A stretch of 64,000 nt of DNA from an uncultured delta proteobacterium (lineage in GTDB: Bacteria > Desulfobacterota > Syntrophia > Syntrophales > UBA5619), in contig CAWJHT010000066.1 of NCBI GenBank assembly GCA_963842685.1, positions 11,281-75,280 of the forward strand, read 5' to 3'. Of the stretch, positions 15,176-64,000 are shown piece after piece. The position numbers and the translations under genes are program-made. How positions within the stretch are numbered: the first letter of the stretch is position 1; each line of letters starts with the position of its first letter. A model generated the notes under the pieces. The model saw only the letters and a program-made list of their open reading frames with translations, did not search any database and was not told the origin of the DNA.

Positions 15176-15355
15176 TGATTTTATCGTACATTTATGAGAC
15201 AAACCCTGTTCTTCGTTGCTTATATGTTTTTGAGGTCCGTGTTGGATAGTTTTTCTGTTTAATGTGGGTGGGGTGCTATTGCTGTGACATTTCCAAGCGG
15301 GAGGGACGGCATCTCGTTGTGTTTTGTATGGCGGAGTAAGGTTCAATGGGAATGA

Positions 15356-15896: not shown

Positions 15897-15902
15897 TCAT
15901 CG

Positions 15903-16757: not shown

Positions 16758-16759
16758 TT

Positions 16760-42630: not shown

Positions 42631-42645
42631 ATGGAAAGGGGTGTC

Positions 42646-46995: not shown

Positions 46996-48005
46996 ATGAA
47001 ACGTGCAGGATTTTTTTTCATCGCGGGTATCATGGCCATGTGTCTGGCAGTCACTGCGAGTGCCGCGGAAAAGGTTACGGTTTACACTTCGCTGGAGACG
47101 GATGAAACGGTCAAATACCTCGAGGCGGCCAGAAGGGATATGCCGGACCTGGAAATCAACATCATCCGTCTTTCCACCGGTGAACTGGGTGCACGCATGC
47201 TGGCCGAAAAGGACAATCCCCAGGCGGATCTGGTCTGGGGGTGGGCCGTGACCAACATGGAAGAATTCATTCCCAAGGGCCTGCTGGTACCCTACAAACC
47301 CAAAGGCGTGGAAAGACTCGAACAGCGCTTTGTTCACCCCCAGTATTATGTACGTCGGAATCGATATGTACATCGCCGCCTTCTGCGTGAATACCAAAGT
47401 CATGCAGGAGAAGGGACTGCCCATGCCCAAGGGGTGGAACGACCTTCTCGATCCGAAATTCAAGGGCCTCGTGACCATGCCCAATCCGGTGGCCTCCGGT
47501 ACGGGATTCCTCCAGATCGCCAGCATCCTCCAGATGTACGGCGCGAAGGAGGGCAAGGAGGACGGCTGGGAATTCCTGAAGAAACTGGACAAGAACATCG
47601 GCCAGTACATCAAGAGCGGATCCCGTCCGGCCAAGATGACCGCCTCGGGAGAGTTTGCCGTGGGGGCCTCCTTCGAATTCGTCGTGGCCGAACTGATCAA
47701 ACAGGGCTTCCCGGTAAAGTTTGTCTTCCCGATCGAGGGTGCGGGATATGAAGTGGAGGCCAACGCCCTGCTCAAGGGGGCGAAAAACCCCAACGCCGCA
47801 AAGAGATTCCTGGATTGGGCCATCACGGACAACGCCATGAAAGAGTATTCCAAATTCAAGCATGGCGTGACCCTCCCCGGGATTCCCTCCCGGCCGGATC
47901 TGCCCAAATTGTCCGAAATCAAGCTCTACCCGATGGACTTCAGCTGGCAGGCCAAGAACAGCGAGGCCATCAAGAAGAAGTGGGAGAGCCCTCTTCTCGA
48001 AGTAA
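46996..48005 (+). CDS. ABC substrate-binding protein, putative 2-aminoethylphosphonate/Fe(III) family (frameshifted)
   Basis: Signal peptide, VTVYTSLE, STGELGARMLAEKDNPQADLVWG, MPNPVASGTG, QYIKSGSRP. Confidence 0.85.
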
Positions 48006-48014
48006 GCTCCATGT

Positions 48015-48050
48015 TTCCGGTCATCCTGCCTCAAGGCGGGATGACCGGAA
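48015..48050 (+). other. Stable intercistronic hairpin after SBP gene
   Basis: TTCCGGTCATCCTGCC-TCAA-GGCGGGATGACCGGAA. Confidence 0.7.
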
Positions 48051-48114
48051 TCCATGCCGTTTTTTTTGAACCTATTCTGTATAGAACTCTCAACATCTAA
48101 GCGAGGAAGGAAAG

Positions 48115-49202
48115 ATGGGAAGAGACCTCAAGCTGGAAAATCTCACCAAACGCTACGGAAATCTTACCGCCGTGGATCATGTCAATCTGGAGATCCAGGA
48201 AGGGGAGTTCATCTGTTTTCTGGGACCCAGCGGTTGCGGAAAAACCACGGTGCTCAGGATGATCACCGGATTTGAAACGGTTACGGAGGGGAAGTGTGAT
48301 CTTCAACAACCGCGTGATCAACGATCTCATTCCCAAGAAGCGGGAATTCGGAATTGTCTTTCAGTCCTACGCCCTTTTCCCGAACATGACCGTGGAGGAG
48401 AACATCGCCTTCGGTCTGAAGATGAGGAAGATGCCGAAGAAGGCCATTGCCGAACGGGTGGACAAGATGCTCGATCTGATCGGTCTGTCCGACTGGCGAA
48501 AACTTTATCCGGCCCAGTTGAGCGGCGGTCAGCAGCAGCGGGTCGCCCTGGTGAGGGCCCTCGCCCCGGATCCCCAGGTGCTTCTCCTGGATGAACCCCT
48601 GAGCGCCCTCGATGCGAAAATCAGGCTCCGCCTCAGGGCGGAGATCAAGCGATTGCAGCAGGAATTGAAAAAGACCATGATCCATGTGACCCACGATCAG
48701 GAAGAGGCCCTGTCCATTGCCGATCGTGTGGTGGTCATGGAAGGGGGGCAGTTCCGGCAGGTGGGACGGCCCATTGACATCTACAAAAACCCGACCTGCA
48801 GCTTTGTGGCGGACTTTGTGGGAACGTCCAATTTCTTTGAAGGGCGCCGTACCGGCGATGTCGTCGATATCGGCAAGAGAAAAATCAAGGTGAGGCAAGA
48901 ACGGCGCCGGGGCGGACGAGGCCGTTTCCCTGGCCATCCGGCCGGAAAATGTGGAAGTGTTCAAAAAGGAGGCGCCCCCCGAGGTCGACGAACCCATGAA
49001 CCTCGTCTCCGGCCGGATTGAAGTGGTGGTTTTTCAGGGTGCTGCCGTAAGACTTCTCATCAACATTGACGGCGAGGAGATCATCTCGGATATCAACGAG
49101 AAGGAGTTCGAGCAACGCTCTTTGAAGCGGGGGGATGAGGTTTATCTCTATTTCCCTCCTGAGGCATTTCTGGTATTTCCCGACGGGGAGGGGAAAAAAT
49201 GA
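48115..49202 (+). CDS. ABC ATPase, PotA/FbpC/PhnT-like with TOBE domain (frameshifted)
   Basis: [39 protein letters not shown]. Confidence 0.92.
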
Positions 49203-50969
49203 ACCCTATCGAACCTTCCGGAAAACGATTCTCCTCGTGGTTCACCGCCGACAATCTCTTCACCGGGGTGATCATGACGTTTCTGCTGGTCATCCTGGCC
49301 GTTTTCCTGCTCTATCCGGTGGTGGACATCTGCCGGTTGAGCTTCATCAAGGACGGGGCTTTCAGCCTGCAAAACTATCTGGATTATTTCTCCGAGCCGA
49401 GGATCTTTCGCTCCTTCTACAACAGCATGTTCGTATCCACGGTGACCATGGTCATCACCACGGTGCTGGCCTTCCTGTTTGCCTACGGTCTCACCCGCAC
49501 CACCATGCCGGGCAAGGGGTTCTTCTACACGGTATCCACGCTTCCCCTCATTGCGCCGACCATCATCCAGGCCCTGGCGCTCATTTTGCTGTTCGGCCGC
49601 AACGGCGTCATCACACGCTACCTTCTGGACACGAGCTGGAATATCTACGGCGCCACGGGCATCATCGTGGGAGAGATCCTCTACTGTTTTCCCAACGCCC
49701 TTTTCATTCTTTATACCACCCTGTCCGCGGTGGACACGCGCCTCGACGAGGCCGCACAGAGCCTGGGGGCCTCCGCCCTGAAAACCTTCTTCAAGGTGAC
49801 CCTCCCCTCGGCGAAGTACGGAATCGCCAGCGCCGCGGCGCTTACCTTCAACCTGACCATCACCGACTTCGGCATCCCGGTGGTGATCGGGGGGGACTAT
49901 TCCGTTCTGGCGACGGAGATCGTCAACAAGGTCTTCGGTATGCAGCGGTTCGACCTGGGGGCGACCATCAGCGTGATCCTCCTGGTTCCCTCCATCACGG
50001 CCTTTGCGATCAATTACTACCTGACCCGGAAGAGCTATGCCATGATCAGCGGCCAGGCCCGTCCCTTCATCCAGCCTTCCCGGCCGTTGAAGAAATGGGC
50101 GTTCACCGCTTACTCGACCCTGATCTGCGCCTGCATCCTTCTGGTTTTCGTTACGGTCTTCCTGGGCTCATTCGTCAAAACCTGGCCTTACGATTTTTCA
50201 CTCACCCTCAAACATTTTGACTTTCCGTCCCTCGGGGCGAGCGTTCCGTTCTGGACCGCGTTCTGGAACAGCGTCCTGGAGCCGGGACCGTTGCGCGACA
50301 TGATCGCCATCAAATACGCCCCCATCTGGACCAGCCTCCTGGTATCCCTGGTGGTGGCCGTGGTCGGGGCTTCCATCACCCTGGTGGCCGCCTACATCAT
50401 CGAAAAGAAGAAGCCCCGGGGCGAGCAGCTTCTCTACGCCCTGTCGGTTCTGCCGGCGGCCATACCCGGGGTGGTGCTGGGTCTGGGATACGTGCTGGCC
50501 TTCAACAAACCCTACTTTCTGATTTACGGCACAATCTGGATCATCATCATCAACGTCGTGATCGCCAACTTCACCCTGGGGGTTCTCTCCGGAACGGCGA
50601 ATCTCAAGCAGATCGACAAGTCGGTCGAGGAGGCTGCGGTCAGTCTCGGCGCCGGACCGGTGACCACCTTCACGCGGATCGTATTTCCGCTCTCCAAGGT
50701 GGCCTTCCTCTCCACGACCACCTTCTATTTTCATGCGGGCGATGACCACGATCAGCGCCGTCCTGTTTCTGGTTTCGGCGCAGATCAAGCTGGCCGCAAT
50801 CGAGATCATCTTCCTCGATGTGGACGGCCGAACGGCGAGCGCCAATGCCATGTGCACCGTCGTCGTGCTGATCGTCGCGCTGTTCCTGGTCGATCATGCG
50901 GATTACCACGGGCAGTTCAGGGCTCACGGGGATGAGCGCAACAAAATGAACGGAGGACCTGCGAAATGA
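49199..50969 (+). CDS. ABC permease, FbpB/PhnU2-like (fused double TM domain)
   Basis: Two EAA motifs (LDEAAQSLGA, VEEAAVSLGA), TDFGIP, IPGVVLGLGY. Confidence 0.9.
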
Positions 50970-51736
50970 ACATCATCGATCCGGACAATCCCATTCCCAA
51001 ATATCTGCAGATCAGCGCCTGGATCAAAGATCTGATCCAGTCCGGGAGGTACGAAAAGGGCGGCGCTCTGCCGTCGGAGGTCGAACTGGCCAGGATCTGT
51101 CAGGTGAACAGGAATACCCTCAGACAGGCCATTGCGGAATTGACGGCGGCGGGAGTACTGCGGAAGGAAAAAGGACTCGGAACATTCGTCTGTGCCGAGT
51201 CCCCTCTGGCGATCAAGCATCGGCTCAAGAATATTTCCAGTTTCAGTGACGACCTGCGGGAGCTCGGGATCAAGGAGACGACCAAAATCATCAAGAAGGG
51301 GGTGGAAGAGGCGAAGGAGCAGGTGTCCAAGAAACTGATCCTGGGCCAGAAGGGCAAGGTGGTGGCCATCCGTCGTCTCCGGACCGGCGACAAGGTGCCC
51401 TTCATCTACGAGGAAAGCTTTCTTCCCTACTTCACCTTCAGGGAGATACTGGAGATGGATCTGACCGCCTCCATGTACCAGATCCTTTACGAGCGGTTCA
51501 ATATCACTCTGGCCAGGTCTGAGCAGACCATCCGAGCGGTCAATCTGAAAGGTCGCATAGCGACCTATCTGAATGTACCTGAAAATACTGCGGCATTTTT
51601 CATGGAGAGTCTGACCTATGACGAGAACAATTGCCCGGTGGAGCTTTTATACTCTTATTACCGGGGAGACAAGTATGTTTTTGAGGTTGAACTCAGCCGT
51701 TACCATATCAAGGAGAATCCATTGCACGAGGAATAA
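50966..51736 (+). CDS. GntR/HutC-family regulator with UTRA domain
   Basis: PKYLQI, LPSEVELA, TLRQA, GLGTFV, YYRGDKY. Confidence 0.93.
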   Translation: MNIIDPDNPIPKYLQISAWIKDLIQSGRYEKGGALPSEVELARICQVNRNTLRQAIAELTAAGVLRKEKGLGTFVCAESPLAIKHRLKNISSFSDDLRELGIKETTKIIKKGVEEAKEQVSKKLILGQKGKVVAIRRLRTGDKVPFIYEESFLPYFTFREILEMDLTASMYQILYERFNITLARSEQTIRAVNLKGRIATYLNVPENTAAFFMESLTYDENNCPVELLYSYYRGDKYVFEVELSRYHIKENPLHEE

Positions 51737-51760
51737 GCTTGCTTTTTGTAATGAGAGTGG

Positions 51761-51770
51761 TGTATATACA
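51761..51770. promoter_or_regulatory. HutC-type operator palindrome
   Basis: TGTATATACA in AT-rich gap between the GntR gene and the transaldolase-like gene. Confidence 0.7.
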
Positions 51771-51813
51771 TCTAAACATGAAATAACATAAAAACGGTAA
51801 ATGAGGGGGAACT

Positions 51814-53025
51814 ATGAAAGAATACAATCTGTTGGAGGAACTGGTCCAGGTGAGTCCCGGGATGGAGATCTGGTGGGATTCTTCACCCGTGATCTTTGCA
51901 AACTGGTGCCGGAAGATGCTTGCCAAGGCGCCGGAGGGAGATAAGGAGACGCTGAAGCGCCAGTTCGACCGGATGTACAATGGGAAGGACGACAAGAACT
52001 CCCTGTTCCGCGGCGTCACGACCAATCCTGCCTTGTCCTTGCAGGCCATCAAGGATGACGAGCCTTATTGGAGGGAAGTGACCAAAGGGATTATAGGTAA
52101 GAATAAAGGGATAGACAAGGAGTCCCTCTTCTGGCTTCTTTATAAAGAGGTGGTGAAGCGCGGTTCCGACATGTTCCTGCCTCTCTTTGAAAAGACGAAT
52201 TTTCGCGAAGGATTTCTGTCCGGTCAGGTGGATCCGCGGAATGCATTCGACAAGGATGCCATGTTGAAGCAGGCGATGGACTTGGTCACGATCAATCCCA
52301 ATGTGATGATCAAGATACCCGGTACGAAGGAGGGTTACGAAGTCATCGAGATCCTCACCTCCCGGGGGATAGCGACCAACAATACGCTGACCTTTGTCTT
52401 GCCCCAGTTGATGGACTGCGCCAAATCCGTGCAGAGGGGTCTGGAAAAGGCCAAGAAGGACAATGTGGATCTGTCTCGCTGGCGGTCCGTGATCACCCAT
52501 ATGGAGGCCCGCTACGGAGATCTGGGAGGTTTAAGGGACTTTGCAAAGGAAAAAGGGATAGAGCTTTCCGAGGCCGATGTGCGTCTGGCGGAACTGGCGA
52601 TTTTCAAGAAGGCCTACCGTCTGATCAAAGAGAGAAACTATCCGAGCAAGCTGCTCTCCTGTTCACTCCGTGTGGGACCGAAGGTGAATGGCGTCCTGAA
52701 GCTGTGGCATCTCGAGGAGAAGGCGGGGGCAAACATCGTCGTCACCTGTCCCCCGACGTTTATCGATGAGGTGATCCATTTCCCCGGTCCGGAAAATATT
52801 TCCTTTGTGAAGGGACGTATCGATCAGGAGATCCCCAAAGACGTGCTGGATAAACTGCTGAGGGTTCCCTATTTTGAAAGGGCTTACGCGGAAGACGGCT
52901 ATACCCGTGACGAGTACAACAGCCATCCGTCGCTCGTCAAGACGGCGCAGCAATTTTCGAAGGCGACTGAAGATATGGTGGAATTTACCGACAAGTGCCT
53001 TGCGGAGTCATGTCTCCATGCATGA
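51814..53025 (+). CDS. Divergent transaldolase/FSA-family Schiff-base enzyme
   Basis: WWDS, GVTTNP, SGQVDP, MIKIPGT, NNTL, SCSLR. Confidence 0.85.
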   Translation: MKEYNLLEELVQVSPGMEIWWDSSPVIFANWCRKMLAKAPEGDKETLKRQFDRMYNGKDDKNSLFRGVTTNPALSLQAIKDDEPYWREVTKGIIGKNKGIDKESLFWLLYKEVVKRGSDMFLPLFEKTNFREGFLSGQVDPRNAFDKDAMLKQAMDLVTINPNVMIKIPGTKEGYEVIEILTSRGIATNNTLTFVLPQLMDCAKSVQRGLEKAKKDNVDLSRWRSVITHMEARYGDLGGLRDFAKEKGIELSEADVRLAELAIFKKAYRLIKERNYPSKLLSCSLRVGPKVNGVLKLWHLEEKAGANIVVTCPPTFIDEVIHFPGPENISFVKGRIDQEIPKDVLDKLLRVPYFERAYAEDGYTRDEYNSHPSLVKTAQQFSKATEDMVEFTDKCLAESCLHA

Positions 53026-53084
53026 CCCCGTCTGGCAATGATTGAACTGTCTGAACCCATTCGTCATGATGAAAGGAGAATCTC

Positions 53085-54179
53085 ATGAAACAGTTAAAAG
53101 ATTGGTTTGTCCCCTGGTTGCTCACCGCACGGGAATACAACACCGCCATACTCGACAAGGCCTGGGCGAAGCCCGATTACGGCCGCCTGATGCTCAATGA
53201 AAATCCTCTTCCCCCTTCCGAGAAGGTGATCAAGGCGGTGACGGATATCCTCTCCAAGGGGAACCGCTATCCCGACAGCATGCTGCGGTTGCGGACCAAA
53301 CTGGGAAAGCTGCACAACCTGGGGCCGGACAATATCGGCCTGTGCAACGGCTCCTCGGAGATCATCGATTGCATGATGCGGATCTTCCTCCAGCCCGGCG
53401 ACGAATTCATCGTCTCCACGCCCACCTTCGAGCTCTTCCCGCCGCGGGCGGAACTGGCGGGCGGGAAGGTGGTCTCCGTTCCGCTGCGGAAAGAGGATCT
53501 CCAGTACGACGTGGACGCCATGCTCAAGGCGATCACCCCCAAGACCAAGCTGATCCTCGTCATCAACCCCAACAACCCGACGGGCATCTTCATCGACGAC
53601 AAGGACCTGATCCGTTTCTGCGAGACGGGAATCCCGCTGTGCATCGACGAGGCCTATCTGGACTACCATCCCGAGATCCCGTCCAAGGACTTCCTGCTCA
53701 AGAAGTATCCCCAGGTCTTCCTCTCCCACACCTTTTCGAAGGCCTACGGCTTTGCCGGCATCCGCTTCGGGTACGTGGTGGGGACGGAGGAGATGGTCAA
53801 GGCCTTCAACGCCATGTTCCTGCCCTGGAACGTGAGCCTGATGGCCATGGCGGCGGCGGAGGCGATCCTGGACAACCCGGGGGAGGTTGCGGCGAAGGTG
53901 AAGCACAACAACCGCTGGATGGATATCTTCACCAAGGAACTGGTGCAGGTCGGCCTGAAGCCCTTCCCGGCGCACGGCAACTACATGCTCATCGATGCCA
54001 CCATGACCGGCAAGACCACCGCCGAGATCCTGGCGGCGGGGCTGGAGATGGAGCAGATCTTCCTCAAGAGCATCAAACCGATCCACGGCAAGGACGGCTA
54101 TTTCCGGGTGACGCCCGGCGTGGACGAGGAAAACGAGCGGTTCGTCCGGTTTGTCCGGAACTATTTCGGGAAGAAATAA
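53085..54179 (+). CDS. HisC-like class I/II PLP aminotransferase
   Basis: NENP, NGSSEII, NPNNPTG, DEAY, TFSKAYGFAGIRFGY. Confidence 0.88.
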   Translation: MKQLKDWFVPWLLTAREYNTAILDKAWAKPDYGRLMLNENPLPPSEKVIKAVTDILSKGNRYPDSMLRLRTKLGKLHNLGPDNIGLCNGSSEIIDCMMRIFLQPGDEFIVSTPTFELFPPRAELAGGKVVSVPLRKEDLQYDVDAMLKAITPKTKLILVINPNNPTGIFIDDKDLIRFCETGIPLCIDEAYLDYHPEIPSKDFLLKKYPQVFLSHTFSKAYGFAGIRFGYVVGTEEMVKAFNAMFLPWNVSLMAMAAAEAILDNPGEVAAKVKHNNRWMDIFTKELVQVGLKPFPAHGNYMLIDATMTGKTTAEILAAGLEMEQIFLKSIKPIHGKDGYFRVTPGVDEENERFVRFVRNYFGKK

Positions 54180-54180
54180 C

Positions 54181-54948
54181 TTGCAGATCTATGTATGCCT
54201 GAAGCATGTCCCCGACACCGCGGCCAATATCAGGCCTCTGGGCGGGACGGAATTTGACGAATCCGTCAAGTTCATCATGAATCCCTACGACGAATACGCG
54301 CTGGAGCAGGCCCTCCTGATCCGGGAAAGCGGCTCCGGCGCCGAGGTCGTTGCGGTCACGGTCGGCAAGGAGGCTGCGGCATCCACGCTGCGGACGGCCC
54401 TCGCCATGGGCGCCGACCGGGCGATACACGTCAGGACGGAGACCTATTTTACGGACGCCGTCGAGACGGGGCGACTCCTCCACCGGGCCATTTCCCTGGA
54501 CGGTTCCCCGGATCTGATCCTGACCGGCCGGCAGTCGGTCGATACGGAAGGGATGCAGATCCCCTACCGACTGGGGGTTCTCTTCGATATGCCGGTGGCC
54601 GTGAACGTGGTGGCCTTTTCCATGGCCGAAGGTCTGGTCACCGTGGAGCGGGAGATCGAAGGGGACGTCCGCGAGGTGATCGAGATGACCATGCCTTGCA
54701 TCGTCGGCGCGACCAAAGGGCTCAACCGCCCGCGCTGTGCCACCCTGCCGGATATGATGAAGGCGAAAAAAAAGGAGATCCGTGTGATGACCCGGGCCGA
54801 TCTCGGCACGGCGCCAAACCCGCCGGCCGTGGAGCTCCTGGAGCTTCAACCGGCGCCGGACCGCGGCCGGGGGAGGATCCTGGAGGGCTCTCCGGACGAA
54901 ATGGCGCGGGAGCTCTTGCGGCACCTCAGGGCAAACAATACTCTGTAA
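54181..54948 (+). CDS. etfB: Electron transfer flavoprotein beta subunit
   Basis: VCLKHVPDT, NPYDEYALE, ALAMGAD, GRQSVD, MKAKKK. Confidence 0.93.
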   Translation: MQIYVCLKHVPDTAANIRPLGGTEFDESVKFIMNPYDEYALEQALLIRESGSGAEVVAVTVGKEAAASTLRTALAMGADRAIHVRTETYFTDAVETGRLLHRAISLDGSPDLILTGRQSVDTEGMQIPYRLGVLFDMPVAVNVVAFSMAEGLVTVEREIEGDVREVIEMTMPCIVGATKGLNRPRCATLPDMMKAKKKEIRVMTRADLGTAPNPPAVELLELQPAPDRGRGRILEGSPDEMARELLRHLRANNTL

Positions 54949-54966
54949 ATTCGAGAATCGGAAACC

Positions 54967-55915
54967 ATGGCGAAGATCGGCGTTCTCATCGAAACCAAAG
55001 ACGGGGAGGTCAGGAAGACGACCCTGGGCGTCCTGACGGCGGCGAGGCAGGATCCGGGAGGGGAGGTGTACGCCCTTCTTCTGGATCCGAACGCCGAGGG
55101 GTGTCGCGAGTCGTTGAAGCAGTACGGCGCGGACAGGATCGTGGCCATCCAAACGCCGGAGGCGGAGATCGCCTCCTTTCCGGAGGGGCAGGCCGCGGCG
55201 CTGGCATCCGCCGTCGATCATTTCCAACTCGATGCCCTCCTGGGGTCGTCCGGCCAGACCGGAAGGGATCTGCTGGCCCGGGTCGCATCGCTCAAAGGGG
55301 CGCCTCTGGTTCTGGATTGTCTTCATGTCGATCTTGCCAAGGGAGTGGTCCGGAAATCCCACTTCTCCGGCAGGACGACGGCCGATCTTCGGTTGAACGG
55401 ACGGCCCTGGATCCTGGGGATTCGACCCAATGCCGTTCCCGAACGCGTCGATCCCCGGCCGGGGGAGATCGTCGAATACAAGGTCGCGGATCCCTTCCCG
55501 AAAAGAATGGTGATCCGCCGGATCCGCCGGGGTGATGCCGGGGGACCTGACGTCTCCGAGGCCGAGATCGTCATTTCCGGCGGTCGCGCCCTGGGATCGG
55601 CGGAAAATTTCCAGATACTGCGTGAGTGCGCATCCCTTCTCGGGGCGGCGGTCGGGGCCTCCCGGGCGGCCGTGGACGCCGGCTACGCGCCGCATGCCCT
55701 GCAGGTGGGCCAGACCGGGAAAACCGTCAGCCCCAGACTCTACATCGCCTGCGGCATCTCCGGATCGGTTCAGCATTTCGCGGGAATGAAGACCTCCAAG
55801 GTGATCGTCGGGATCAACAAGGACAAGGATGCGCCTGTTTTCCAGAAATGCGATTACGGCCTTCTCGGCGATCTGTTCGAGGTTGTCCCGGCCTTGACGA
55901 AGGCGCTGTCCGTAA
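54967..55915 (+). CDS. etfA: Electron transfer flavoprotein alpha subunit (stop probably shifted by an indel)
   Basis: SGGRALG, GASRAAVDAG, QVGQTGK, GISGSVQH, INKDKDAP, GDLFEVVP. Confidence 0.93.
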
Positions 55916-55962
55916 CTCTAATAATTACACTGCGGTCCTCGCAGGTGCACGCTCAAATCAAT

Positions 55963-56044
55963 CCCTTGCGGGGGAGGGTTAGGGTGGGGGGAAAACCGGA
56001 TCCAGTGTACTCCCCCCCCTTATCCCTCCCGCCAGGGGAGGGGA
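55963..56044. repeat. REP-like CCCTCCC/GGGAGGG inverted repeat pair
   Basis: GGGAGGGTTAGGGTGGGGGGA paired with TCCCCCCCCTTATCCCTCCC plus internal CCCTCCC..GGGGAGGG hairpin. Confidence 0.7.
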
Positions 56045-56119
56045 TACGAAAGAAAATTACAAGTACTGGTTCGGATCGAACCCATTTCCGGGACTTCCTG
56101 AAAGTGAAAGGAGTGAATC

Positions 56120-58541
56120 ATGCGCGACAGTGCACAGGTTGTCATTATCGGCGGAGGCATCGTGGGCTGCAGCATCGCCTACCACCTGACCAAGATGGGA
56201 TGGCGGGATGTGATCCTCCTGGAAAAGGGCGAATTGACCAGCGGCTCCACCTGGCATGCGGCGGGCCTCGTGGGACAGCTCCGCTCCCACCGGAACGTGA
56301 CCCGGATGCTGCAGTACAGCGTCAGCCTCTACAAGACCCTGGAGGCGGAGACGGGACTCACGACGGGCTGGAAGCAGAGCGGCTGCCTCCATCTGGCGAG
56401 CACGCAGGAGAGGATCCTCGAACTGAAGAAGGGGGCCACCACCGCCCGCAGCTTCGGTCTCGACCTCCACATGATCACCCCCGAAGAGGCGCTGAAGCTC
56501 TGCCCCATCCTCAACATGGAGGGGATCATCGGCGCGGCCTTCATGCCCTCCGACGGCCAGGCCGACCCCAGCGGCCTGACCATGGCCATGGCCAAGGGGG
56601 CCATGAACCGCGGCGCGACAATGGAGCAGAAGACCCTGGTCACGGGATTCGAGATCCGGAACAACCGCGTTGAAGCCGTGGTGACGGACAAGGGAACGAT
56701 CCGCTGCGAAACGGTCGTCAACGCCGCGGGCATGTGGGGCCGGGAGATCGGCCGCATGATGGGCGTGAACATCCCCCTGGTTCCCTTCCAGCACCAGTAC
56801 CTCGTGACCGAGGCGATCGAGGGCGTCCCGCCGAACATGCCGACGCTCCGGGACAAGGACAGCCTCCTGTACTACAAGGAAGAGGTGGGGGGACTGGTCA
56901 TGGGCGGCTACGAGCGGGACGGCATCCCCTGGTCCATCCGGGGAGTCCCCAAGGGGTTCACCCAGGAGCTTCTGGAGCCCGACTTCGACCATTTCGAATC
57001 CATTTCGCAGGCGGCCGTGAACCGGACGCCCTGTCTCGGCTACGGCCGGGATTGCGCGGCTCGTCAACGGACCGGAGGCCTTCACCCCGGACGGGAACTG
57101 CATGCTGGGACCGGCCCCGGAGCTTGACAACTGCTTTGTCGCCGTCGGGTTCAACGCCTTCGGGATCGCCGCCGGCGGCGGCGCCGGGAGGATGGTGGCC
57201 GAATGGATCGTGGAGGGGGAGCCGAGCCTCAACATCTGGCCGCTCGACATCCGCCGCTTCGGACAGTACCACCGGAGTCTGAAGTACAATGTCGAACGGA
57301 CGAAAGAGATCTACGGCAAGCACTACACCATCTCCTGGCCCCATGAGGAGCACGATTCGGCCCGGGGGGTGAAGCGCTCGCCCCTCTACTGGCTGCTCAA
57401 GGAGAAGGGGGCGGTGTACGGGGCCAAATACGGCTGGGAGCGGTCGAACTGGTTCGCACCGGCCGGGGTGGCCCCCGAGGATTCCCTCACCTTCGGGATT
57501 CCCAACTGGTTCGAACACGTGGCCGCGGAGCATCGGGCGGCGCGCGAGGCGGTCGTGCTGATCGACCAGTCCTCCTTCAGCAAGTTCGAGGTGACGGGGG
57601 CCGGGGCGCTTGCCTTCCTGAATCATGTGGCGGCGGCAATCTGGACCGGCCCGTGGGATCGACCGTCTATACCCAGCTCTGCAACGAACGGGGGGGAATC
57701 GAAGCGGACATCACCATCTCCCGGGTGGAAGAAGAGAGATTCTTCGTGATCACGGGTACGGCCTTCGGGGTGCACGATTTCCAGTGGCTCAAACGGCATC
57801 TGCCGAAGGACGGCTCCGTCTCGCTGCGCGACGTCACCTCCTCTTTGGCGATGATCAATGTCTGCGGTCCCTCTTCGCGGGAACTCCTGCAGCGTCTCTC
57901 GGAGGACGACTTCGGCAACGACGCCTTTCCCTTCGGTCAATGCCGGCAGGTCGTCATCGGTTACGCCCCGGTGCTGGCCCTCCGGGTGACCTACATCGGC
58001 GAATTGGGCTATGAACTCTACATGCCGCCGGAATACGCCGCCAATCTCTACGAGAGCCTCTGGCTGGCCGGGCAGGATCTCGGGATCCGGAACGCCGGAT
58101 ACCGGGCGATCGATTCGCTCCGGCTGGAGAAGGGCTACTGCTACTGGGGCGCCGAGGTATCGCCGGATTACAGCCCCTACGATGCGGGGATCGGTTTTGC
58201 CGTCAGTCTCGACAAGGGTCCCTTCGTGGGGCGGGACGCCCTGCTGAGGATCAAACAAGAATGGGCCGGCCTGGAAGCTCTGCCTGTTCACCCTGGATGC
58301 CGACCGTCCGATGCTCCTCTACGGGGGAGAGACCATCACCTGCCGGGGCAAGGTGGTCGGCGTGGTCTCCAGCGGCGGTTTCGGACACACCGTGGGAAAG
58401 ACGATCGCCATGGGTTATCTGTCCGCCGAGGACTCGCAGGCTGCCGACGGTTATGCGGTCGAGGTCTTCGGGGAGTCCTTTCCGGCGACGCGTCTGGCAA
58501 AGGCCCCGTATGATCCGGAGCGCCGGAGGATTTTTCTGTAG
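56120..58541 (+). CDS. Dimethylglycine/sarcosine dehydrogenase-like FAD oxidoreductase with GcvT folate-binding domain (frameshifted)
   Basis: IIGGGIVG, LTSGSTWHAAG, GWERSNWF, YTQLCNERGGIEADIT, YIGELGYEL, SLRLEKGY, PYDPE. Confidence 0.92.
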
Positions 58542-58684
58542 GCCGAATAAACGATTAATGGTAACATTGAACAGAAGCAATTTGATGCTTGGATGAAAGC
58601 GGGCGGACGCCCGGGGATACAATGATGGGAAGGGGGATCATGCCATAGGTTAAACCAGATTATTTTAGAAGAAGGAGGGAACAT

Positions 58685-59683
58685 ATGACCGGCAAGAAGA
58701 GATTCATCGGTTTTGTCCTGATCGCGGCTCTGACGGGTATGATGATGGTTGCGGCCCCCTGCCGGGCTCAACCGGAGCTGCGCGTCTACACTCACAATGA
58801 AACCGCCGAGATGGAAAAATGGGTGCCGGTGGCGGAAAAGGCGATCGGCATGAAGATCGTCTGGAGCCCCCGCCTGGCATCCAACGAACTCTGGACCCGC
58901 GTCCTGACGGAAAACCCCAACTTCAACGCCGATGTGATCTGGGGCTTTCTGAACTCCGATGCCCAGGTGGGCGCCCAGAGAGGGTTTTTTGTCCCCTATC
59001 AGTCGCCCGCATGGGCCGACATCCCCGCCGAATTCAAGGATCCGGATCATCAGTGGTACGGCTACAACTACTGGTTCTCCGCCATCGCCGTGAATCCGGA
59101 TCTGCTGAAAAAGAAAAACCTGCCCAAACCCCAGTCCTGGGTCGACCTCACCAACCCCGTCTACAAGGGCGAAATCGTCATGCCCGATCCCGCCACGAGC
59201 GGCACGGCCTTCATTTTCGTCTCCGCCGTCATGCAGATCTTCGGCGAGAACAAGGGTTGGGAAATCCTGGAGAAGATCCACAAGAACGCCGGCCAGTACA
59301 CCAAATCCGGCTCGGCTCCGGCCCAGTCGGTGGCCCAGGGAGAATTCGCCATCGGGGTGAGCTGGGACCAGGCCGTCTACGGAAGGGTGGAGCAGAAATT
59401 TCCGATCGAAGGCCTCATCCCCGCGGAGGGCACCGCCTTTGATCTGGAGTCCGTGGCCATCCTGAAGGGAACCAAGAATCTCGCCGGCGCCAAGAAGCTG
59501 GTCGATTGGCTCGGCACCAAAGAGGGGCAGACGCAGATCGGTCTCCTCCGTTCGAAGGTGACCCGACCCGGAGTCCCCGGAAAGGTTCTCGTCGATCCCA
59601 AGCTGATCAAGTATGACGCCCTCTGGGCCGGAGAGAACAAGAAGCGGATCATGACCGAGTGGGCCAAGCGTTTCTCCAAGTAA
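58685..59683 (+). CDS. Second ABC substrate-binding protein, AEP/Fe(III) family
   Basis: Signal peptide, ENPNFNADVIWG, MPDPATSGT, QYTKSGSAP. Confidence 0.88.
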   Translation: MTGKKRFIGFVLIAALTGMMMVAAPCRAQPELRVYTHNETAEMEKWVPVAEKAIGMKIVWSPRLASNELWTRVLTENPNFNADVIWGFLNSDAQVGAQRGFFVPYQSPAWADIPAEFKDPDHQWYGYNYWFSAIAVNPDLLKKKNLPKPQSWVDLTNPVYKGEIVMPDPATSGTAFIFVSAVMQIFGENKGWEILEKIHKNAGQYTKSGSAPAQSVAQGEFAIGVSWDQAVYGRVEQKFPIEGLIPAEGTAFDLESVAILKGTKNLAGAKKLVDWLGTKEGQTQIGLLRSKVTRPGVPGKVLVDPKLIKYDALWAGENKKRIMTEWAKRFSK

Positions 59684-59808
59684 CGGATTAGGCGCGAATG
59701 GAAATCGTGATCCCTCCGCGCGCTGGACATTTTCCGACCCGAAAAATCTCCAAGCGACTTCCGGGATTAAGATTTCCAGTATTGCGCAAAGGTTTCGATT
59801 GTTAGCGC

Positions 59809-59844
59809 CGGCGTGGGGCGGGAGCGGGCTCCCGCCCCATGCCG
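59809..59844 (+). other. Stable intercistronic hairpin after second SBP gene
   Basis: CGGCGTGGGGCGGGAGC-GG-GCTCCCGCCCCATGCCG. Confidence 0.65.
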
Positions 59845-59874
59845 ACGACTGTGTCCAGCCCCATGGGAGCAGCG

Positions 59875-61821
59875 ATGATGCCTTTCCCGGGTAGCGCCGT
59901 CCTGAAACGGCAGATGGATGATTTCCGGCATATTTTGCGCCGGCCGGGTCTGCTGTTCGTCACCACCGTCGCGGTGCTGCTGATTTTCCTGTTTATCGTC
60001 TTCCCCATCGGTTCCGTTCTGATCAAGAGTTTCACCGTCAGCTACCCGACGGTCACGATCGCCTTTCCGGCGGACAACCCCGCGGGGGTGGAAACGGAGA
60101 AAAGGGCGACCGACTCGCTGCTCCTGATGCTTAAGGAGATCCAGGGGATCGAGCAGACCCGATTCAAAAAGGAGGACGGGACGGCCGTCCATACCGTCCG
60201 TTTCCGCAAGGACTGGGACGACCTCAAAGGCTTCAACGACATCAAACGGGCGATCAAGCGCAACAAGGATTCCCTGGAGCCACTTGTCCTGGGAGCGAAG
60301 CTCTCCCTGGGCAAGGAGGCGACGGCAAGCCTCGCCACCTACATGGATTTCTTTACCGGCGGACGTTATTACCGGGCGCTGAAAAACAGCATTCTCGTGG
60401 CGATCGTCACCACGCTGCTGGTGATCCCGCTGGCCTTCTGCTTCGCCTTCCTGGGGCTGAACGGACCGGGCCTGCTGAAGTTTCCCTTGCGGCTCCTCGG
60501 CCTCATTCCGCTGGTGGCGCCGCCGTTCATCTTTTCGCTGGCCCTGATCATCATCGGCGGCCGTCACGGCATCGTGACGCGGATGCTGGAGCTGCCTTTC
60601 AACATCTACGGCTGGCGGGGGGTGATCATCGCCCAGGTGATCACCTTCCTGCCGCTGGGATACCTGATGATCGAAAATGTGCTGCGCTCCCTGGGCTCCA
60701 ACCTGGAGGAGGCCGCCTGCGACATGCGCGCCACGGACTGGCAGATCCTCTACAAGATCACCATACCGCTTGCGGCCCCGGGAATTCTGAAGGCCTCGCT
60801 CCTCGTTTTCATCCTCTCCATCGCCGACTTCGGAAATCCCATGCTGATCGGCGGGGACGTTCCCTTCCTCTCCACGGGGGCCTATCTGCTGTGGGTCAGC
60901 GACAACAACCTGGAAATGGCCGCCGTCTTCTGTGTTTTTCTGGTGCTGCCGAGCCTGATCATCTTCGTGGTCAACGAGTATCTCTTGAAGGGGAAGGGCT
61001 ACACCACCATCGGCGGCAAGCCCCAGCAGACGGAACGGAGGCCCATCGCCCCGAACATCCTCTATCCCATGCTGGGACTGGCGGCCATCGCCTCGGCGGT
61101 GATTCTGGCGAGCTTCGGCATCATCTTTTTCGGGGCCTTCACCAAGATCCTGATGGTGGACAACACCCTGACGCTGGATCACTTCCGAAGCCCCAACGGG
61201 TTTCGGACCCTGATCACGAGCCTCAAGTTCTCCCTGGGGGCCGCCCTGGTCGCCCCGGCAGTGGGCATTACCCTCTCCTACATCCTGGTCCGCAAAAGGA
61301 TCCCCCTGAAGAAGGTTCTGGAGTCCCTGGCCCTGCTGGGGTTCGCCGTTCCCGGTACGGTCATGGGGATCGGGTATATCCTGGCCTTCAACAACCCGCC
61401 GCTCCAGCTCACCGGAACCTTCATCATCCTGATCGTCAACGAGGCATTCCGCAACCTCTCGGTGAGCCTCGAGGCCGGGATGAGCAAGCTCCACCAGATC
61501 GACGTGGCCATCGAGGAGGCGGCGGCAGACATGGGCGCCGGCGCCTTCCGGACCTTTTTCAAAATCGTTCTGCCCCTGCTCAGCTCCGCCTTTGTCGCCG
61601 GCTTCATCTACACCTTCATGGTGGGGATGATCGCGGTGAGCGCGGTGATCTTCCTGATCACACCGGGGAACGATCTGGCGGCCCTGTACATCCTGAACGT
61701 GGCCGAACAGGGGTATCTGGGGATGGCCTGCGCGATTTCCACGATGCTCATCGCCGTCGTGCTGGTCTGTCTGGGCGGCATGAAGCTTCTGGTCAAGATG
61801 ACGAAAATCGAGATGTACTGA
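59875..61821 (+). CDS. FbpB-like ABC permease with an inserted periplasmic domain
   Basis: APPF, LEEAACDMRA, ADFGNP, VPGTVMGIGY, IEEAAADMGA; hydrophilic insert after TM1; start codon uncertain. Confidence 0.9.
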   Translation: MMPFPGSAVLKRQMDDFRHILRRPGLLFVTTVAVLLIFLFIVFPIGSVLIKSFTVSYPTVTIAFPADNPAGVETEKRATDSLLLMLKEIQGIEQTRFKKEDGTAVHTVRFRKDWDDLKGFNDIKRAIKRNKDSLEPLVLGAKLSLGKEATASLATYMDFFTGGRYYRALKNSILVAIVTTLLVIPLAFCFAFLGLNGPGLLKFPLRLLGLIPLVAPPFIFSLALIIIGGRHGIVTRMLELPFNIYGWRGVIIAQVITFLPLGYLMIENVLRSLGSNLEEAACDMRATDWQILYKITIPLAAPGILKASLLVFILSIADFGNPMLIGGDVPFLSTGAYLLWVSDNNLEMAAVFCVFLVLPSLIIFVVNEYLLKGKGYTTIGGKPQQTERRPIAPNILYPMLGLAAIASAVILASFGIIFFGAFTKILMVDNTLTLDHFRSPNGFRTLITSLKFSLGAALVAPAVGITLSYILVRKRIPLKKVLESLALLGFAVPGTVMGIGYILAFNNPPLQLTGTFIILIVNEAFRNLSVSLEAGMSKLHQIDVAIEEAAADMGAGAFRTFFKIVLPLLSSAFVAGFIYTFMVGMIAVSAVIFLITPGNDLAALYILNVAEQGYLGMACAISTMLIAVVLVCLGGMKLLVKMTKIEMY

Positions 61822-61834
61822 AAGGGTTCGATCC

Positions 61835-62933
61835 ATGACGCAAAAAGAGGACACCCCCATACTGGAAATGAGGCACATCGTCAAACGCTTCGGCGCCATG
61901 ACGGCGGTGGATGACGTCTCCCTGGACCTGGAACGGGGCAAGCTGGTCACCTTTCTGGGTCCCAGCGGCTGCGGCAAGACCACGCTCCTGCGGGTGGTGA
62001 GCGGATTCACCGTCCCCGACGGGGGGACGGTGCTCCTCGACGGGGAGGACATCACCCGAGGTCCAGCCCAACGGGCGCGACACGGCCATGGTCTTTCAGA
62101 ACTACGCCCTTTTTCCCCACATGACGGTGGCCGCCAATATCGGATTCGGCCTCAAGATCATGAAAAAAACCAAAAAGGAGGTCGCCGACGAGGTGGAGCG
62201 GCTCCTGGCGCTGGTGCAGATGGAAGGGCTCGGGGGACGACACCCCCATGAGCTTTCCGGCGGCCAGCAGCAGCGGGTGGCCCTGGCGAGGGCCTTGAGC
62301 CTCTGCCCCAAAATCCTCCTCCTGGACGAACCCCTCTCCAACCTCGACGCCAACCTGCGCCTGCTGATGCGGGCGGAGATCCGCAAGCTCCATCGGCGCC
62401 TGGGCCTGTCGATCATCTTCGTCACCCACGACCAGGAAGAAGCCATGTCCCTCTCCGATGAACTCGTCGTGATGGACCGCGGCAAGGTCAAACAGGTCGG
62501 CTCGCCGACCGAGGTCTACGAGAGGCCGGTGGACGATTTCGTGGCCCGCTTCATCGGCCACATCAATTTCATCCCCGGGGAAGTCGTCGAGAAGTCGAAC
62601 GGCCGCCTCACGCTGCGAACCTGCTACGGCGATTGGTCCGTAGCGCAGGTCCCGTTTCCCGTGGCCTGCGGCGACAGGCTCAAGGCCGTGGTCCGCCCCG
62701 AATCGATCGGCATTGCCGCCGCCTCCGATTGCGCCGGAACCGGCGAGGCCAACGTGATCAGGGGACGGGTGGAGGCGGCCATGTACATCGGCGCCATCAT
62801 CCGCTACACGGTGCTCTGCGGTGAAAACACGATGTACATCGATGCGGCGGATCCCCAGTACCGGGGGATACTCAAGGAAGGGACGGAGGTAAAGCTCTTC
62901 TTGAAGGAACGCATCCATATGTTGAAAATATAA
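61835..62933 (+). CDS. ABC ATPase, PotA/FbpC-like (frameshift near 62060)
   Basis: [35 protein letters not shown]. Confidence 0.92.
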
Positions 62934-62999
62934 ACAGATAATTGTCTTTACACTGCGGTCTCTCCGCAGGGTGACATCGGAAGGCAGAAAGGATCATTC

Positions 63000-64000
63000 A
63001 TGAACTGGGCGGAATTCCTGACGGCGGAAGAGATCAAGCGGGTGCACGAGGCCTCGCTTGTGATTCTGGAAGAGACGGGCCTCCTGGTGCGCAACGAAAA
63101 GGCGCGCCGGATCTTTGCCCGGGCGGGATGCCGCGTGGAGAGTGAAAGCGGGGTGGTCAAGATTCCCGGGAAGGTGGTCGAAGAATACCGCAAGGCCTTT
63201 CCGCCGTCGTTTACCTTCCGCGGCCGCGACCCCCGGTACGATCGCACCCTTCCGCAGGACGGGCCGATCATGATCACGGCAAGCTCCGCACCGGACATCA
63301 TCGATCCGGAAACGGGACGACAGCGAAGGGCCACCTCCGGGGACATCGCCGGGATCGCCCATCTGGTCAACGAACTGCCGGGATACGATGTCTTTTCCAT
63401 CTCGACCCTTGCCGCCGATGCACCGGAGGGGCTCTCCAGCCTGACCCGATTTTACGCCGCATTACGGAATTGCGCAAAACCGGTGCGGAGCAACACGCCG
63501 AACATGAAGGAACTCCTGGACGTCCTGGATTGGGGGCGATCATCGCGGGCGGTGAAGAGGCCTACCGGGAGAGGCCGCTCATCAATCATCACTACTGTCC
63601 CGTGGTCTCTCCGCTCACCATGGACGTGGAGTCCACGGAGGCGGTCCTCTATCTGACCGAGAAGGGGCTGCCGGTCTATGGGACGATCTGCCCCAATGCG
63701 GGGATGAGCTCGCCGCTCAGCCTGATCGCGACGCTGGCCCAGGGGAATGCCGAGTTTCTGGCCCTGGCCGTGCTGATGCAGATGGTCCGGATCGGCACGC
63801 CGTTGATCTATGCCGTCCTGGCCACGGTGGCCGATATGAGAACGGGAAATTACGCCCCCGGGGCGATCGAGACGGCGATGCTCCAGATGGGACACAGTCA
63901 GATGGCCCGGTATTACAATGTGCCGTCCGGGGGCTATATCGGTTTGACGAACGCCCATACCAACGATGCGCAATCCGGTTATGAAACGGGCATGGGCACC
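63000..64000 (+). CDS. Trimethylamine methyltransferase (MttB) superfamily, non-pyrrolysine; truncated by window edge
   Basis: VHEASLVILEETG, SPLTMD, LAQGNAEFLA, DMRTG, MARYYNVP, DAQSGYE; frameshift near 63530. Confidence 0.9.

Follow-up and report, generated by a model that had tools for sequence, protein, structure and literature searches.

A candidate catabolic locus for phosphoethanolamine and its N-methylated relatives, built around a divergent transaldolase-fold enzyme, in a Syntrophales-like bacterium

Gene content of the locus

The DNA analysed here, referred to throughout as the window, is a 64-kb stretch of contig CAWJHT010000066.1 from an uncultured Syntrophales-like delta proteobacterium, whose genome assembly comprises 107 contigs and 3.9 Mb at 77% completeness and 5% contamination. 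We read the locus at positions 46996-64000, calling gene families with Pfam and NCBIfam profiles, and found every credible gene co-oriented on the + strand (Table 1). Two ABC importers, each with a substrate-binding protein (SBP), flank a GntR/HutC-type regulator, a divergent transaldolase-fold (TAL-like) enzyme, a HisC-like aminotransferase, the electron-transfer flavoprotein subunits EtfB and EtfA, and a flavoprotein related to dimethylglycine dehydrogenase (DMGDH-like); a pyrrolysine-free methyltransferase of the MttB superfamily closes the window. All of the gene families named in the first-pass annotation of this DNA are therefore present in the orientation it described. The start of the cluster also agrees with that annotation, since Arn-like sugar-modification genes lie upstream of 46996. 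At the other end, the contig extends 4.8 kb past position 64000. This stretch encodes the remainder of MttB, two corrinoid proteins that bind B12, and an MtmB-family protein of 459 aa whose frame is free of internal stops; an AAA_14/DUF4143 ATPase (L001:4594-5748) lies 3' of the MtmB homologue, and there the contig ends. The functions proposed below are predictions drawn throughout from sequence and gene context.

Table 1. Features of the locus, in positions of the window
Feature	Position	Strand	Remarks
SBP1 of importer 1 (PhnS2-like)	46996-48100	+	two frames, 46996-47751 and 47330-48100
ATPase of importer 1 (PhnT2/PotA-like)	48115-49202	+	Pfam ABC_tran in two open reading frames (ORFs); split by indels
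Fused double permease of importer 1 (PhnU2-like)	49199-50935	+	BPD_transp_1 twice
GntR/HutC-type regulator	50966-51736	+	Pfam GntR 57.1 bits, UTRA 120.2 bits
Palindrome TGTATATACA, candidate GntR operator	51761-51770	no strand	about 45 bp 5' of the TAL-like start
Divergent transaldolase-fold (TAL-like) enzyme, 403 aa, intact	51814-53025	+	Pfam TAL_FSA 111.2 bits
HisC-like class I/II aminotransferase, 364 aa, intact	53085-54179	+	Pfam Aminotran_1_2 166.1 bits
EtfB	54151-54948	+	Pfam ETF 128.5 bits
EtfA	54967-55930	+	Pfam ETF and ETF_alpha over residues 5-275 of a 568-aa ORF
DMGDH-like flavoprotein (DAO, FAO_M, GCV_T)	56120-58513	+	ORFs 56120-57127, 57102-57749 and 57653-58513
SBP2 of importer 2, intact	58685-59683	+	TIGR03261 255.5 bits, cut-off 392.75
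Fused double permease of importer 2	59839-61821	+	BPD_transp_1 twice; TIGR03262 263 bits
ATPase of importer 2	61835-62933	+	ABC_tran in two ORFs plus TOBE_2; one indel
Pyrrolysine-free MttB-superfamily methyltransferase	63000-64000, about 440 bases further outside the window	+	Pfam MTTB in two ORFs

The TAL-like gene and the aminotransferase gene form a conserved pair

A scan of one genome per species returned 190 loci with a relative of the TAL-like gene; the best 80 were kept with flanks of up to 10 kb and belong to Syntrophales/Syntrophaceae, to Desulfobacterales and relatives, and to Thermoleophilia and other Actinomycetota. Very close relatives of the TAL-like protein (68-95% identity) occur in many metagenome-assembled genomes (MAGs); at the nucleotide level, L002 and L008 come nearest, with 88% identity over 6-7.5 kb. 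Adjacency of the pair was scored in the 61 loci whose downstream flank is 2.7 kb or longer, and the aminotransferase gene adjoins the TAL-like gene in 56 of them (Actinomycetota 16/16, Desulfobacterales-type 27/29, Syntrophales 13/16; the exceptions are L015, L022, L027, L046 and L060). Since the same gene order also recurs in Syntrophales MAG loci, the arrangement is beyond chance.

The surroundings of the pair differ among the lineages. Syntrophales loci run from an importer through GntR, TAL-like, aminotransferase, EtfB and EtfA to the DMGDH-like gene, and the order of the window is kept in L004, L005, L006, L012, L013, L018, L019, L020 and L023 and, with no GntR detected, in L014; L005 and L006, like the window, also include importer 2 and MttB. 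In Desulfobacterales, a divergent TRAP transporter is followed by a kinase of family PF01633 (choline/ethanolamine kinase), a transketolase-like gene, GntR, the TAL-like gene, an alanine dehydrogenase (503 bits, above cut-off; in 14 of 15 Desulfobacterales full-flank loci) and the aminotransferase, and some of these loci additionally hold either EtfBA together with an Fe-S/CCG oxidoreductase and the DMGDH-like gene, or MttB. Thermoleophilia and other Actinomycetota place an APC-family permease, the pair, a canonical transketolase and a DeoR gene together. One Thermoleophilia locus (L030) carries MttB, a corrinoid protein, MtmB, a kinase, a permease, the pair and a transketolase on one strand.

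Among the 31 full-flank loci, which have at least 8 kb on both sides, a transketolase or transketolase-like gene was found in 23 (Actinomycetota 10/10, Desulfobacterales type 13/15, Syntrophales 0/6), a kinase in 10 (2/10, 8/15 and 0/6, respectively) and any demethylation gene in 8 (1/10, 2/15 and 5/6, respectively). All three Actinomycetota genomes without a kinase in the cluster that were searched have two PF01633 genes elsewhere, and one Desulfobacterales genome contains two more copies of the module, one with kinase, transketolase-like, GntR and TAL-like genes and the other with TAL-like, alanine dehydrogenase and aminotransferase genes. DMGDH-like/ETF or MttB/MtmB genes stand beside the pair in three lineages and in varied orders (L046, L068, L076, L030, L043 and the Syntrophales loci), and the MttB-corrinoid-MtmB trio is common to the window and Thermoleophilia at 57-70% identity. 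Both observations suggest that the core is supplied with N-methylated versions of one and the same amine. The neighbourhood search that the first-pass annotation had named as a check came out in favour of the pair and, in part of the loci of three lineages, of demethylation genes beside it. Its description of the pathway as anaerobic suits this host and does not extend to the core pair as a whole, which is also present in Thermoleophilia and, in one locus, lies beside cytochrome bd genes.

Some loci depart from these patterns. Three Syntrophales loci (L015, L022 and L027) have a TAL-like gene 76-81% identical to that of the window and no aminotransferase. In L015 (5266-15109), the TAL-like gene comes after two radical-SAM genes and a glycolate-oxidase-like FAD/Fe-S pair, and is followed by GntR, a metallo-beta-lactamase-fold protein and a nitroreductase, while in L043 a 2-hydroxyacid dehydrogenase and a glycerate-kinase-like gene are situated directly 5' of it; these two contexts hint at two-carbon acid metabolism. 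Fourteen Desulfobacterales loci (L062:13800-19207 and 13 others) carry a block 3' of the aminotransferase that consists of a class IV (D-amino-acid) aminotransferase, an alanine racemase, PGA_cap, an Asp/Glu racemase and an ATP-grasp enzyme resembling D-Ala-D-Ala ligase.

The TAL-like enzyme retains the Schiff-base lysine and phosphate site and has a glutamine in place of the catalytic glutamate

The AlphaFold model of the TAL-like protein is a transaldolase barrel with a mean pLDDT of 97.3. Foldseek matches ranked 1-36 in the list are all transaldolase-fold proteins (E 4.6e-17 to 8.4e-12), the best solved ones being transaldolases at 19-22% identity, and a search of the ESM Atlas returned only clusters named 'transaldolase family'. 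Profile scores are far below the cut-offs: the best NCBIfam transaldolase model, NF002881, gives 107.8 bits against a cut-off of 367, and the model of fructose-6-phosphate aldolase (FSA), TIGR00875, gives 45.4 bits against 245.95.

We mapped residues by alignment with E. coli TalB (24% identity) and FsaA (27% identity) and scored conservation over 79 members of the clade. Like both references, the TAL-like enzyme has the TIM barrel, the catalytic Asp (D22, TalB D17) and the Schiff-base Lys (K167, TalB K132), each present in 79/79, as well as the TTNP motif and T191; the TalB phosphate site Arg181/Ser226/Arg228 corresponds to R233 (79/79), S284 (79/79) and R286 (77/79). The departures concern the catalytic Glu96 of TalB and its Phe178. 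The former is replaced by Gln (Q138) in 79/79 members, as in FSA. Around the latter, the TalB stretch S-P-F178-V-G-R reads T-H-M-E-A-R in the window and T-H-M-E-(A/S/G)-R in the clade (H229 78/79, M230 79/79, E231 79/79), so that the position of the catalytic Tyr of FSA (Y131) is occupied by a Met flanked by His and Glu. With the Gln present, the Tyr replaced and a length of 403 aa versus about 220 aa, the protein falls outside FSA. The combination of Gln and Met is common to a larger branch of proteins of about 350-430 aa (906 clusters at 50% identity, E <=1e-10), in which the His and Glu of T-H-M-E-x-R are particular to the TAL-like clade.

The imidazole pocket of HisC enzymes is not kept in the aminotransferase

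The best NCBIfam match of the aminotransferase is hisC (TIGR01141) at 254.6 bits, below the cut-off of 276.55, and its best solved relatives are the aromatic aminotransferase 4r2n of M. tuberculosis (146 bits) and the plant HisN6 8bj1 (143 bits). Residues were mapped in 65 sequences through the alignment with 4r2n and the residues named in PMC4703992. According to that paper, the imidazole pocket of mHspAT is formed by Asn103, Tyr127, Met129 and Tyr261, and the phosphate of its substrate is held by R337, R346 and N176. The fold is shared with the HisC/I-beta enzymes described there, as are the pyridoxal-phosphate (PLP) Lys (K219), the conserved Asn, Asp and Tyr and the anchoring Arg R341 (65/65). 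The pocket differs: its counterparts are S91 (65/65), F115 (65/65), Leu (47) or Met (18) at position 117, and W248 (65/65), and the gene lies in a catabolic cluster, not in a his operon. Judged by these residues, the aminotransferase is not an enzyme of the histidine pathway, and they do not separate a phosphate from a carboxylate substrate. Hercynine or another histidine-type substrate, which the first-pass annotation had listed as an alternative, was rejected: the imidazole pocket is not kept and hut-type genes are not present.

The N-demethylation genes

The window MttB covers profile positions 32-488 of MTTB in two frames with no in-frame stop besides the indel, and no other MTTB gene was found in the genome. 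Among solved structures, the glycine betaine methyltransferase MtgB is closest to it (228 bits). In the alignment to 9yce, however, the MtgB residues R312, H348 and F356 are Gly, Asn and Leu in the window protein, and the R312 position is well anchored (VPS-G-GYIGL in the window MttB versus VPS-R-SGGGL in 9yce). PMC13080624 reports this acid-binding Arg as conserved in the characterised MttB members that act on acidic quaternary amines, namely MtgB, MtcB, MtpB, MthB and MtyB. These replacements argue against the window MttB being a glycine betaine enzyme or a simple phosphocholine demethylase of the MthB kind.

The corrinoid genes lie directly downstream of MttB. The MtmB homologue beyond them matches Pfam MtmB with 222.2 bits over profile positions 1-449 of 450; its residues 3-453 align with M. 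barkeri MtmB, with Ile/Asn at the place of pyrrolysine and no stop. The DMGDH-like protein carries its DAO, FAO_M and GCV_T domains in three pieces, and in locus L014 a single 806-aa ORF holds DAO, FAO_M, GCV_T and GCV_T_C; with EtfBA directly upstream, and with EtfB in the same position across Syntrophales loci, this is the architecture of the dimethylglycine/sarcosine dehydrogenase family together with an ETF partner. Elsewhere the genome encodes two RamA-like activases, two transketolases and five further matches to pterin-binding methyltransferases, the latter beside corrinoid genes. Reading past 64 kb for a corrinoid protein, MtgA and RamA, as had been advised earlier, thus supplied the corrinoid proteins together with MtmB, while the RamA-like genes proved to be located elsewhere and no methyl-corrinoid:tetrahydrofolate methyltransferase was found in the cluster.

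A second corrinoid-methyltransferase neighbourhood (G000:C33:2277-18752) contains a corrinoid protein, a pterin-binding methyltransferase, TRAP genes and a PhnS2-like binding protein; its MtmB-like gene is 39% identical to the Thermoleophilia MtmB.

Importers and regulator

The importers were annotated at first as of the 2-aminoethylphosphonate (AEP)/Fe(III) type. That there are two of them is borne out, and the type is not: all matches to NCBIfam AEP-transporter models stay below their cut-offs (SBP1, TIGR03261 96.3 and 223.8 bits, cut-off 392.75; PhnU2 model TIGR03262, permease 1 446.6 and permease 2 263 bits versus 593.25), and the ATPase of importer 1 gives 74.6 and 312.6 bits with TIGR03265. 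SBP2 is 36% identical to SBP1; among solved structures it comes closest to 8x1a, AfuA 4r72 and the PLP-binding protein 6wce. PMC4546632 describes AfuABC as a transporter of hexose and heptose phosphates, and P5PA is reported to bind vitamin B6 phosphate. Because these relatives bind sugar phosphates or PLP, the SBP2 family is predicted by analogy to bind organophosphates and not iron.

The regulator matches the PhnF and PhnR models with 119 and 101 bits. A GntR gene is found upstream of the TAL-like gene in 47 of the 80 loci, all of them in Syntrophales and Desulfobacterales. Regulators of the types that recur beside the pair usually sense phosphorylated effectors. Downstream of the GntR gene lies TGTATATACA, a perfect palindrome and the only match in the window when up to one mismatch is allowed; in the shuffle control, 18 of 100 shuffles had at least one match. 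It is of the type GT-N-TA-N-AC, the operator type of the HutC subfamily. Within 160 bp 5' of the TAL-like gene, GT-N-TA-N-AC occurs in 25 of 78 loci, and TGTATATACATCT is found at -44 to -52 in 15 of 21 Syntrophales loci, with a variant form in some Desulfobacterales. The palindrome is plausible as the operator of the GntR regulator, which has the helix-turn-helix and UTRA domains of the HutC subfamily.

Proposed pathway

We propose that the locus is one working catabolic locus by which a Syntrophales-like host breaks down phosphoethanolamine and the N-methylated compounds of its series, as far as phosphocholine or choline. The two organophosphate-type ABC importers would take up amino-phosphate esters, the head groups of membrane lipids. 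The MttB-family and the pyrrolysine-free MtmB-family methyltransferases would each pass a methyl group to one of the two corrinoid proteins, and the DMGDH-like flavoprotein would transfer methyl carbon to tetrahydrofolate and electrons to EtfAB. Phosphoethanolamine, imported as such or formed from ethanolamine by an ethanolamine kinase, would be converted to glycolaldehyde phosphate by the HisC-like aminotransferase, with pyruvate as the likely amino acceptor where alanine dehydrogenase is co-encoded. Lys167 of the TAL-like enzyme would then carry a dihydroxyacetone unit and join it to glycolaldehyde phosphate, giving xylulose 5-phosphate, which a transketolase would move into the pentose phosphate pathway and central metabolism; the transketolase gene is part of the cluster in other lineages and lies outside it in this genome. 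Control of the TAL-like promoter probably falls to the GntR/UTRA regulator, acting at the palindrome at 51761.

The kinase, the aminotransferase with alanine dehydrogenase, the Schiff-base enzyme with its phosphate site, the transketolase and the regulators all fit a route from phosphoethanolamine to xylulose 5-phosphate. This part of the first-pass annotation, which had placed the same intermediates in the same order, gains from the context in the other lineages; its assignment of MttB to plain phosphocholine is doubtful, as the Arg equivalent to R312 is lacking. Choline kinase, EutB and phosphoketolase were not found in the 77%-complete genome, and the missing kinase fits the import of substrates that are already phosphorylated. 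A phosphoketolase exit from xylulose 5-phosphate was considered and rejected for the same negative result.

Several observations weigh against this pathway. Neither kinase nor transketolase is part of the Syntrophales clusters, that of the window among them (0 of 6 full-flank loci), demethylation genes accompany the core in only 8 of the 31 full-flank loci, and no phosphoketolase was found in the genome (77% complete). The Desulfobacterales loci use a TRAP transporter, and TRAP transporters usually take carboxylates or sulfonates. In this 77%-complete genome and in the Syntrophales genome G005, no TAL_FSA gene other than the TAL-like one was found, and a housekeeping role is possible in both. 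Since Gln stands in for the catalytic Glu, the enzyme may act as an aldolase or catalyse another reaction. In the aminotransferase the second phosphate Arg is not conserved (position 331: K 26, G 27, N 5, P 5, S 2). A carboxylate substrate is possible, because the best solved relative is an aromatic amino-acid aminotransferase and only one phosphate Arg is kept. The lack of the R312 equivalent also makes phosphocholine doubtful as the substrate of the window MttB.

On balance, we hold the full chemistry tentatively, at slightly less than an even call. The broader statement, a widespread and so far undescribed B12-independent two-carbon route for ethanolamine and choline head groups through a new aminotransferase and a new class of transaldolase-fold enzymes, with complete N-demethylation in Syntrophales, is more tentative by a small step. 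That the TAL-like/aminotransferase pair is a dedicated module for the catabolism of a small amine is much more likely than the chemical reading in full.

Alternative explanations

The strongest alternative is that the same module handles another amine, such as ethanolamine converted to glycolaldehyde, serinol phosphate, aminopropanol phosphate or an amino acid, and that the TAL-like enzyme is an FSA-like aldolase. The Gln at the position of TalB Glu96 is the residue that FSA has, the aminotransferase pocket of S91, F115, L/M117 and W248 is closer to that of the aromatic aminotransferase than to HisC, and a single anchoring Arg is invariant. The kinase is present in only 10 of the 31 full-flank loci, and in other lineages the module comes with TRAP and APC transporters. 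We nevertheless consider this unlikely, because the kinases belong, with 107-115 bits, to the choline/ethanolamine kinase family PF01633, the phosphate-site residues of the TAL-like enzyme are invariant, the link to N-methyl chemistry indicates the ethanolamine/choline series, and the catalytic Tyr of FSA is a Met.

A pathway for AEP or N-methyl-AEP, in which the HisC-like enzyme would replace PhnW and the Schiff-base Lys of the TAL-like enzyme would cleave phosphonoacetaldehyde as phosphonatase does, shares several traits with the known PhnS2T2U2, PhnW and PhnX system: the importer family, for which PhnS2/T2/U2 are the best NCBIfam names of both importers, a GntR-type regulator with matches to PhnF and PhnR, and the proposed transamination of a 2-aminoethyl-P compound with alanine dehydrogenase, which partners the aminotransferase as in AEP operons; moreover, no PhnX above cut-off was found in the genome. 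The aminotransferase is of another class, though, and the window cluster contains no phnW, no phnX and no phosphonatase; in their stead stand the transaldolase-fold enzyme and, in other lineages, kinases and transketolases. The Phn matches all fall below cut-off, the TAL fold retains its distal phosphate site, and orthologues at 68-72% identity stand beside kinases and transketolases that AEP breakdown does not need. A true PhnW locus on contig C18 (G000:C18:17191-22017; L088:6192-10992), with the PhnW halves at 256 and 301 bits (cut-off 400.8) followed by alanine dehydrogenase, an unassigned 387-aa ORF and a PhnU2-like permease at the contig end, further weakens the AEP alternative that the first-pass annotation had raised, and we regard it as improbable.

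We give an equally low probability to a mosaic, in which MttB, the DMGDH-like protein and ETF would degrade glycine betaine by way of dimethylglycine and sarcosine, next to an ordinary transaldolase and a hisC paralogue. MtgB is indeed the nearest solved structure of the window MttB, DAO-FAO_M-GCV_T is the architecture of dimethylglycine/sarcosine dehydrogenases, and this genome and G005 yielded no second TAL_FSA gene. These points are outweighed by the Gly, Asn and Leu at MtgB R312, H348 and F356, by importers that are not of the betaine type, by demethylation genes embedded with the pair in several gene orders, by the adjacency of the pair in 56 of 61 loci and by the replacement of the catalytic Glu in every TAL-like sequence; two Actinomycetota genomes additionally keep a canonical transaldolase (254.6 and 271.3 bits).

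Relation to known systems

Demethylation of phosphocholine and of choline by enzymes of the MttB and MtmB families is already known. According to Jiang et al. 2025 (PMC12155760), MthB, an MttB member of E. limosum, demethylates phosphocholine. The MthB/MthC/MthA/MthK system resembles the locus in its pyrrolysine-free MttB member with a corrinoid protein and in a phosphorylated substrate of the choline series, its kinase being linked in many genomes including those of delta-proteobacteria (PMC12155760). E. limosum removes one methyl group and excretes dimethylaminoethanol (PMC12155760), whereas the window encodes further candidate demethylases and a candidate route for the carbon skeleton. The window MttB differs in lacking the Arg reported as conserved in MthB, and the window cluster has neither an MthK-type kinase nor a methyl-corrinoid:tetrahydrofolate methyltransferase. 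MtqB, a pyrrolysine-free MtmB of Methanococcoides methylutens Q3c, demethylates choline and tetramethylammonium according to Kashyap et al. 2026 (PMC13044021). As in the locus, MtqB/MtqC pairs a pyrrolysine-free MtmB homologue with a neighbouring corrinoid protein. That system belongs to a methanogenic archaeon and hands the methyl group to coenzyme M, while the homologue described here is bacterial and stands beside MttB and the TAL-like/aminotransferase module.

The same starting compounds as those proposed here, ethanolamine or phosphoethanolamine, are used by Eut, a B12-dependent ammonia-lyase, and by ethanolamine-phosphate phospho-lyase, both of which yield acetaldehyde. The product proposed for the locus is a pentulose phosphate, and no EutB was found in the genome.

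The first-pass annotation knew of no described pathway with this combination of genes. For the demethylations this does not hold, given MthB and MtqB; for the aminotransferase and transaldolase steps it agrees with the literature that we could cover, which mostly excludes subscription journals and in which we found no paper pairing MttB with a transaldolase, nothing relevant that links a transaldolase to aminoethylphosphonate, ethanolamine or phosphoethanolamine, no phosphoethanolamine transaminase, no transaldolase-fold enzyme accepting glycolaldehyde phosphate and no further demethylation of products of the MthB or MtqB type. The locus thus appears to be built from known enzyme superfamilies with two predicted new activities.

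Of the compounds bearing nitrogen and phosphorus that dead cells release, the head groups choline and ethanolamine rank with the most abundant. Their known anaerobic fates are trimethylamine formation, single demethylation and the B12-dependent ethanolamine ammonia-lyase. If the proposed pathway is correct, phosphoethanolamine transaminase and the glycolaldehyde-phosphate-accepting transaldolase-fold enzyme would be two activities without a described representative, and the Gln/Met branch of the transaldolase superfamily would receive its first function. It would also mean a trimethylamine-free choline sink in Desulfobacterota and Actinomycetota of soils, peat and sediments, by which choline could be mineralised in anoxic soils and sediments without the release of trimethylamine.

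Frameshifts in the assembly

At least seven genes of the locus are broken by single-base indels; those for SBP1, ATPase 1, permease 1, the DMGDH-like protein (three frames), ATPase 2 and MttB are split between frames. Scored against four relatives (L002, L004, L005 and L008), single-base coding indels lie at about 47348, 47988, 48293, 48896, 50727, 50891, 57037, 57634, 58256 and 62053. The window has one extra base at each of the two sites in SBP1, whose halves share one frame in L004, at both sites in ATPase 1 (~48293 and ~48896), at both in permease 1 (~50727 and ~50891) and, compared with L005, at the site in ATPase 2; MttB has a single indel near 63535. Among the 12 indels common to the comparisons with relatives, 11 are single-base insertions. 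The EtfA frame has no stop and stays open to 56673, and its alignment to L004 ends at 55907. The genes for the TAL-like enzyme, the aminotransferase, GntR, EtfB and SBP2 are intact.

Similar damage is found outside the locus. The rpoB gene of this genome (G000:C103:28403-32469) lies in at least three frames with two internal TGA codons, and S-adenosylhomocysteine hydrolase and a DegT aminotransferase (window 35406-36831 and 41467-42716) are each split in two. Single-base indels are frequent across the whole assembly, and gene calls are expected to be fragmented throughout the genome. Contigs of four public runs (X1, X2, X6 and X19, 90-99% alike), namely three DNA runs from separate studies and one RNA library, are free of all three DMGDH indels: relative to the window they have one base fewer at 57041/57042, one more at 57636/57637 and one fewer at 58256-58261. 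Because rpoB and the other genes are split alike and these contigs lack the DMGDH indels, the frameshifts are treated as assembly errors and the genes as intact in the organism. A decaying cluster whose frameshifts are real mutations, with pseudogenes in this strain, would account for at least 10 coding indels within 17 kb and is hardly credible given the split housekeeping genes, the 11 single-base insertions among 12 indels, the continuity of the four runs across the DMGDH sites and the five unbroken genes.

No public sequencing run held more than 0.25 of the sampled words, and the source sample and habitat could not be named from the runs. The contigs of the RNA library, about 96% alike, span the aminotransferase, Etf and DMGDH-like genes; they are at most a weak hint of transcription in relatives, since carry-over of DNA is possible.

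Further observations on the window and contig

Scans of 46300-64000 for promoters (3 promoter-like sites versus 4.5 expected) and terminators (19 terminator-like sites versus 16.3 expected) were uninformative. The 12-mer TACACTGCGGTC with a short hairpin (CTGCGG...CCGCAG) has exactly two copies in the 3.9-Mb genome, at 55926-55950 between etfA and the DMGDH-like gene and at 62949-62975 just 5' of MttB. As a shared operator it was not adopted, being missing from the related loci; it may be a small mobile or regulatory element. Contigs of two public runs lack the spacer 55907-56108, in which the first copy lies.

The contig ends (C66:79757-80031) in 250 bp that repeat the 3' end of a DMGDH-like gene and are 77% identical to L004, an indication that the assembly broke at a second gene of this kind. 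At the opposite end of the window, positions 1-17524 hold a flagellar block (FlgE/F/G, FlgD, FliK, FliJ, FliG, FliF, MotA, MotB and PilZ) together with a sigma-54 response regulator, and its G+C content is 0.40-0.50 versus 0.50-0.64 in the remaining window.

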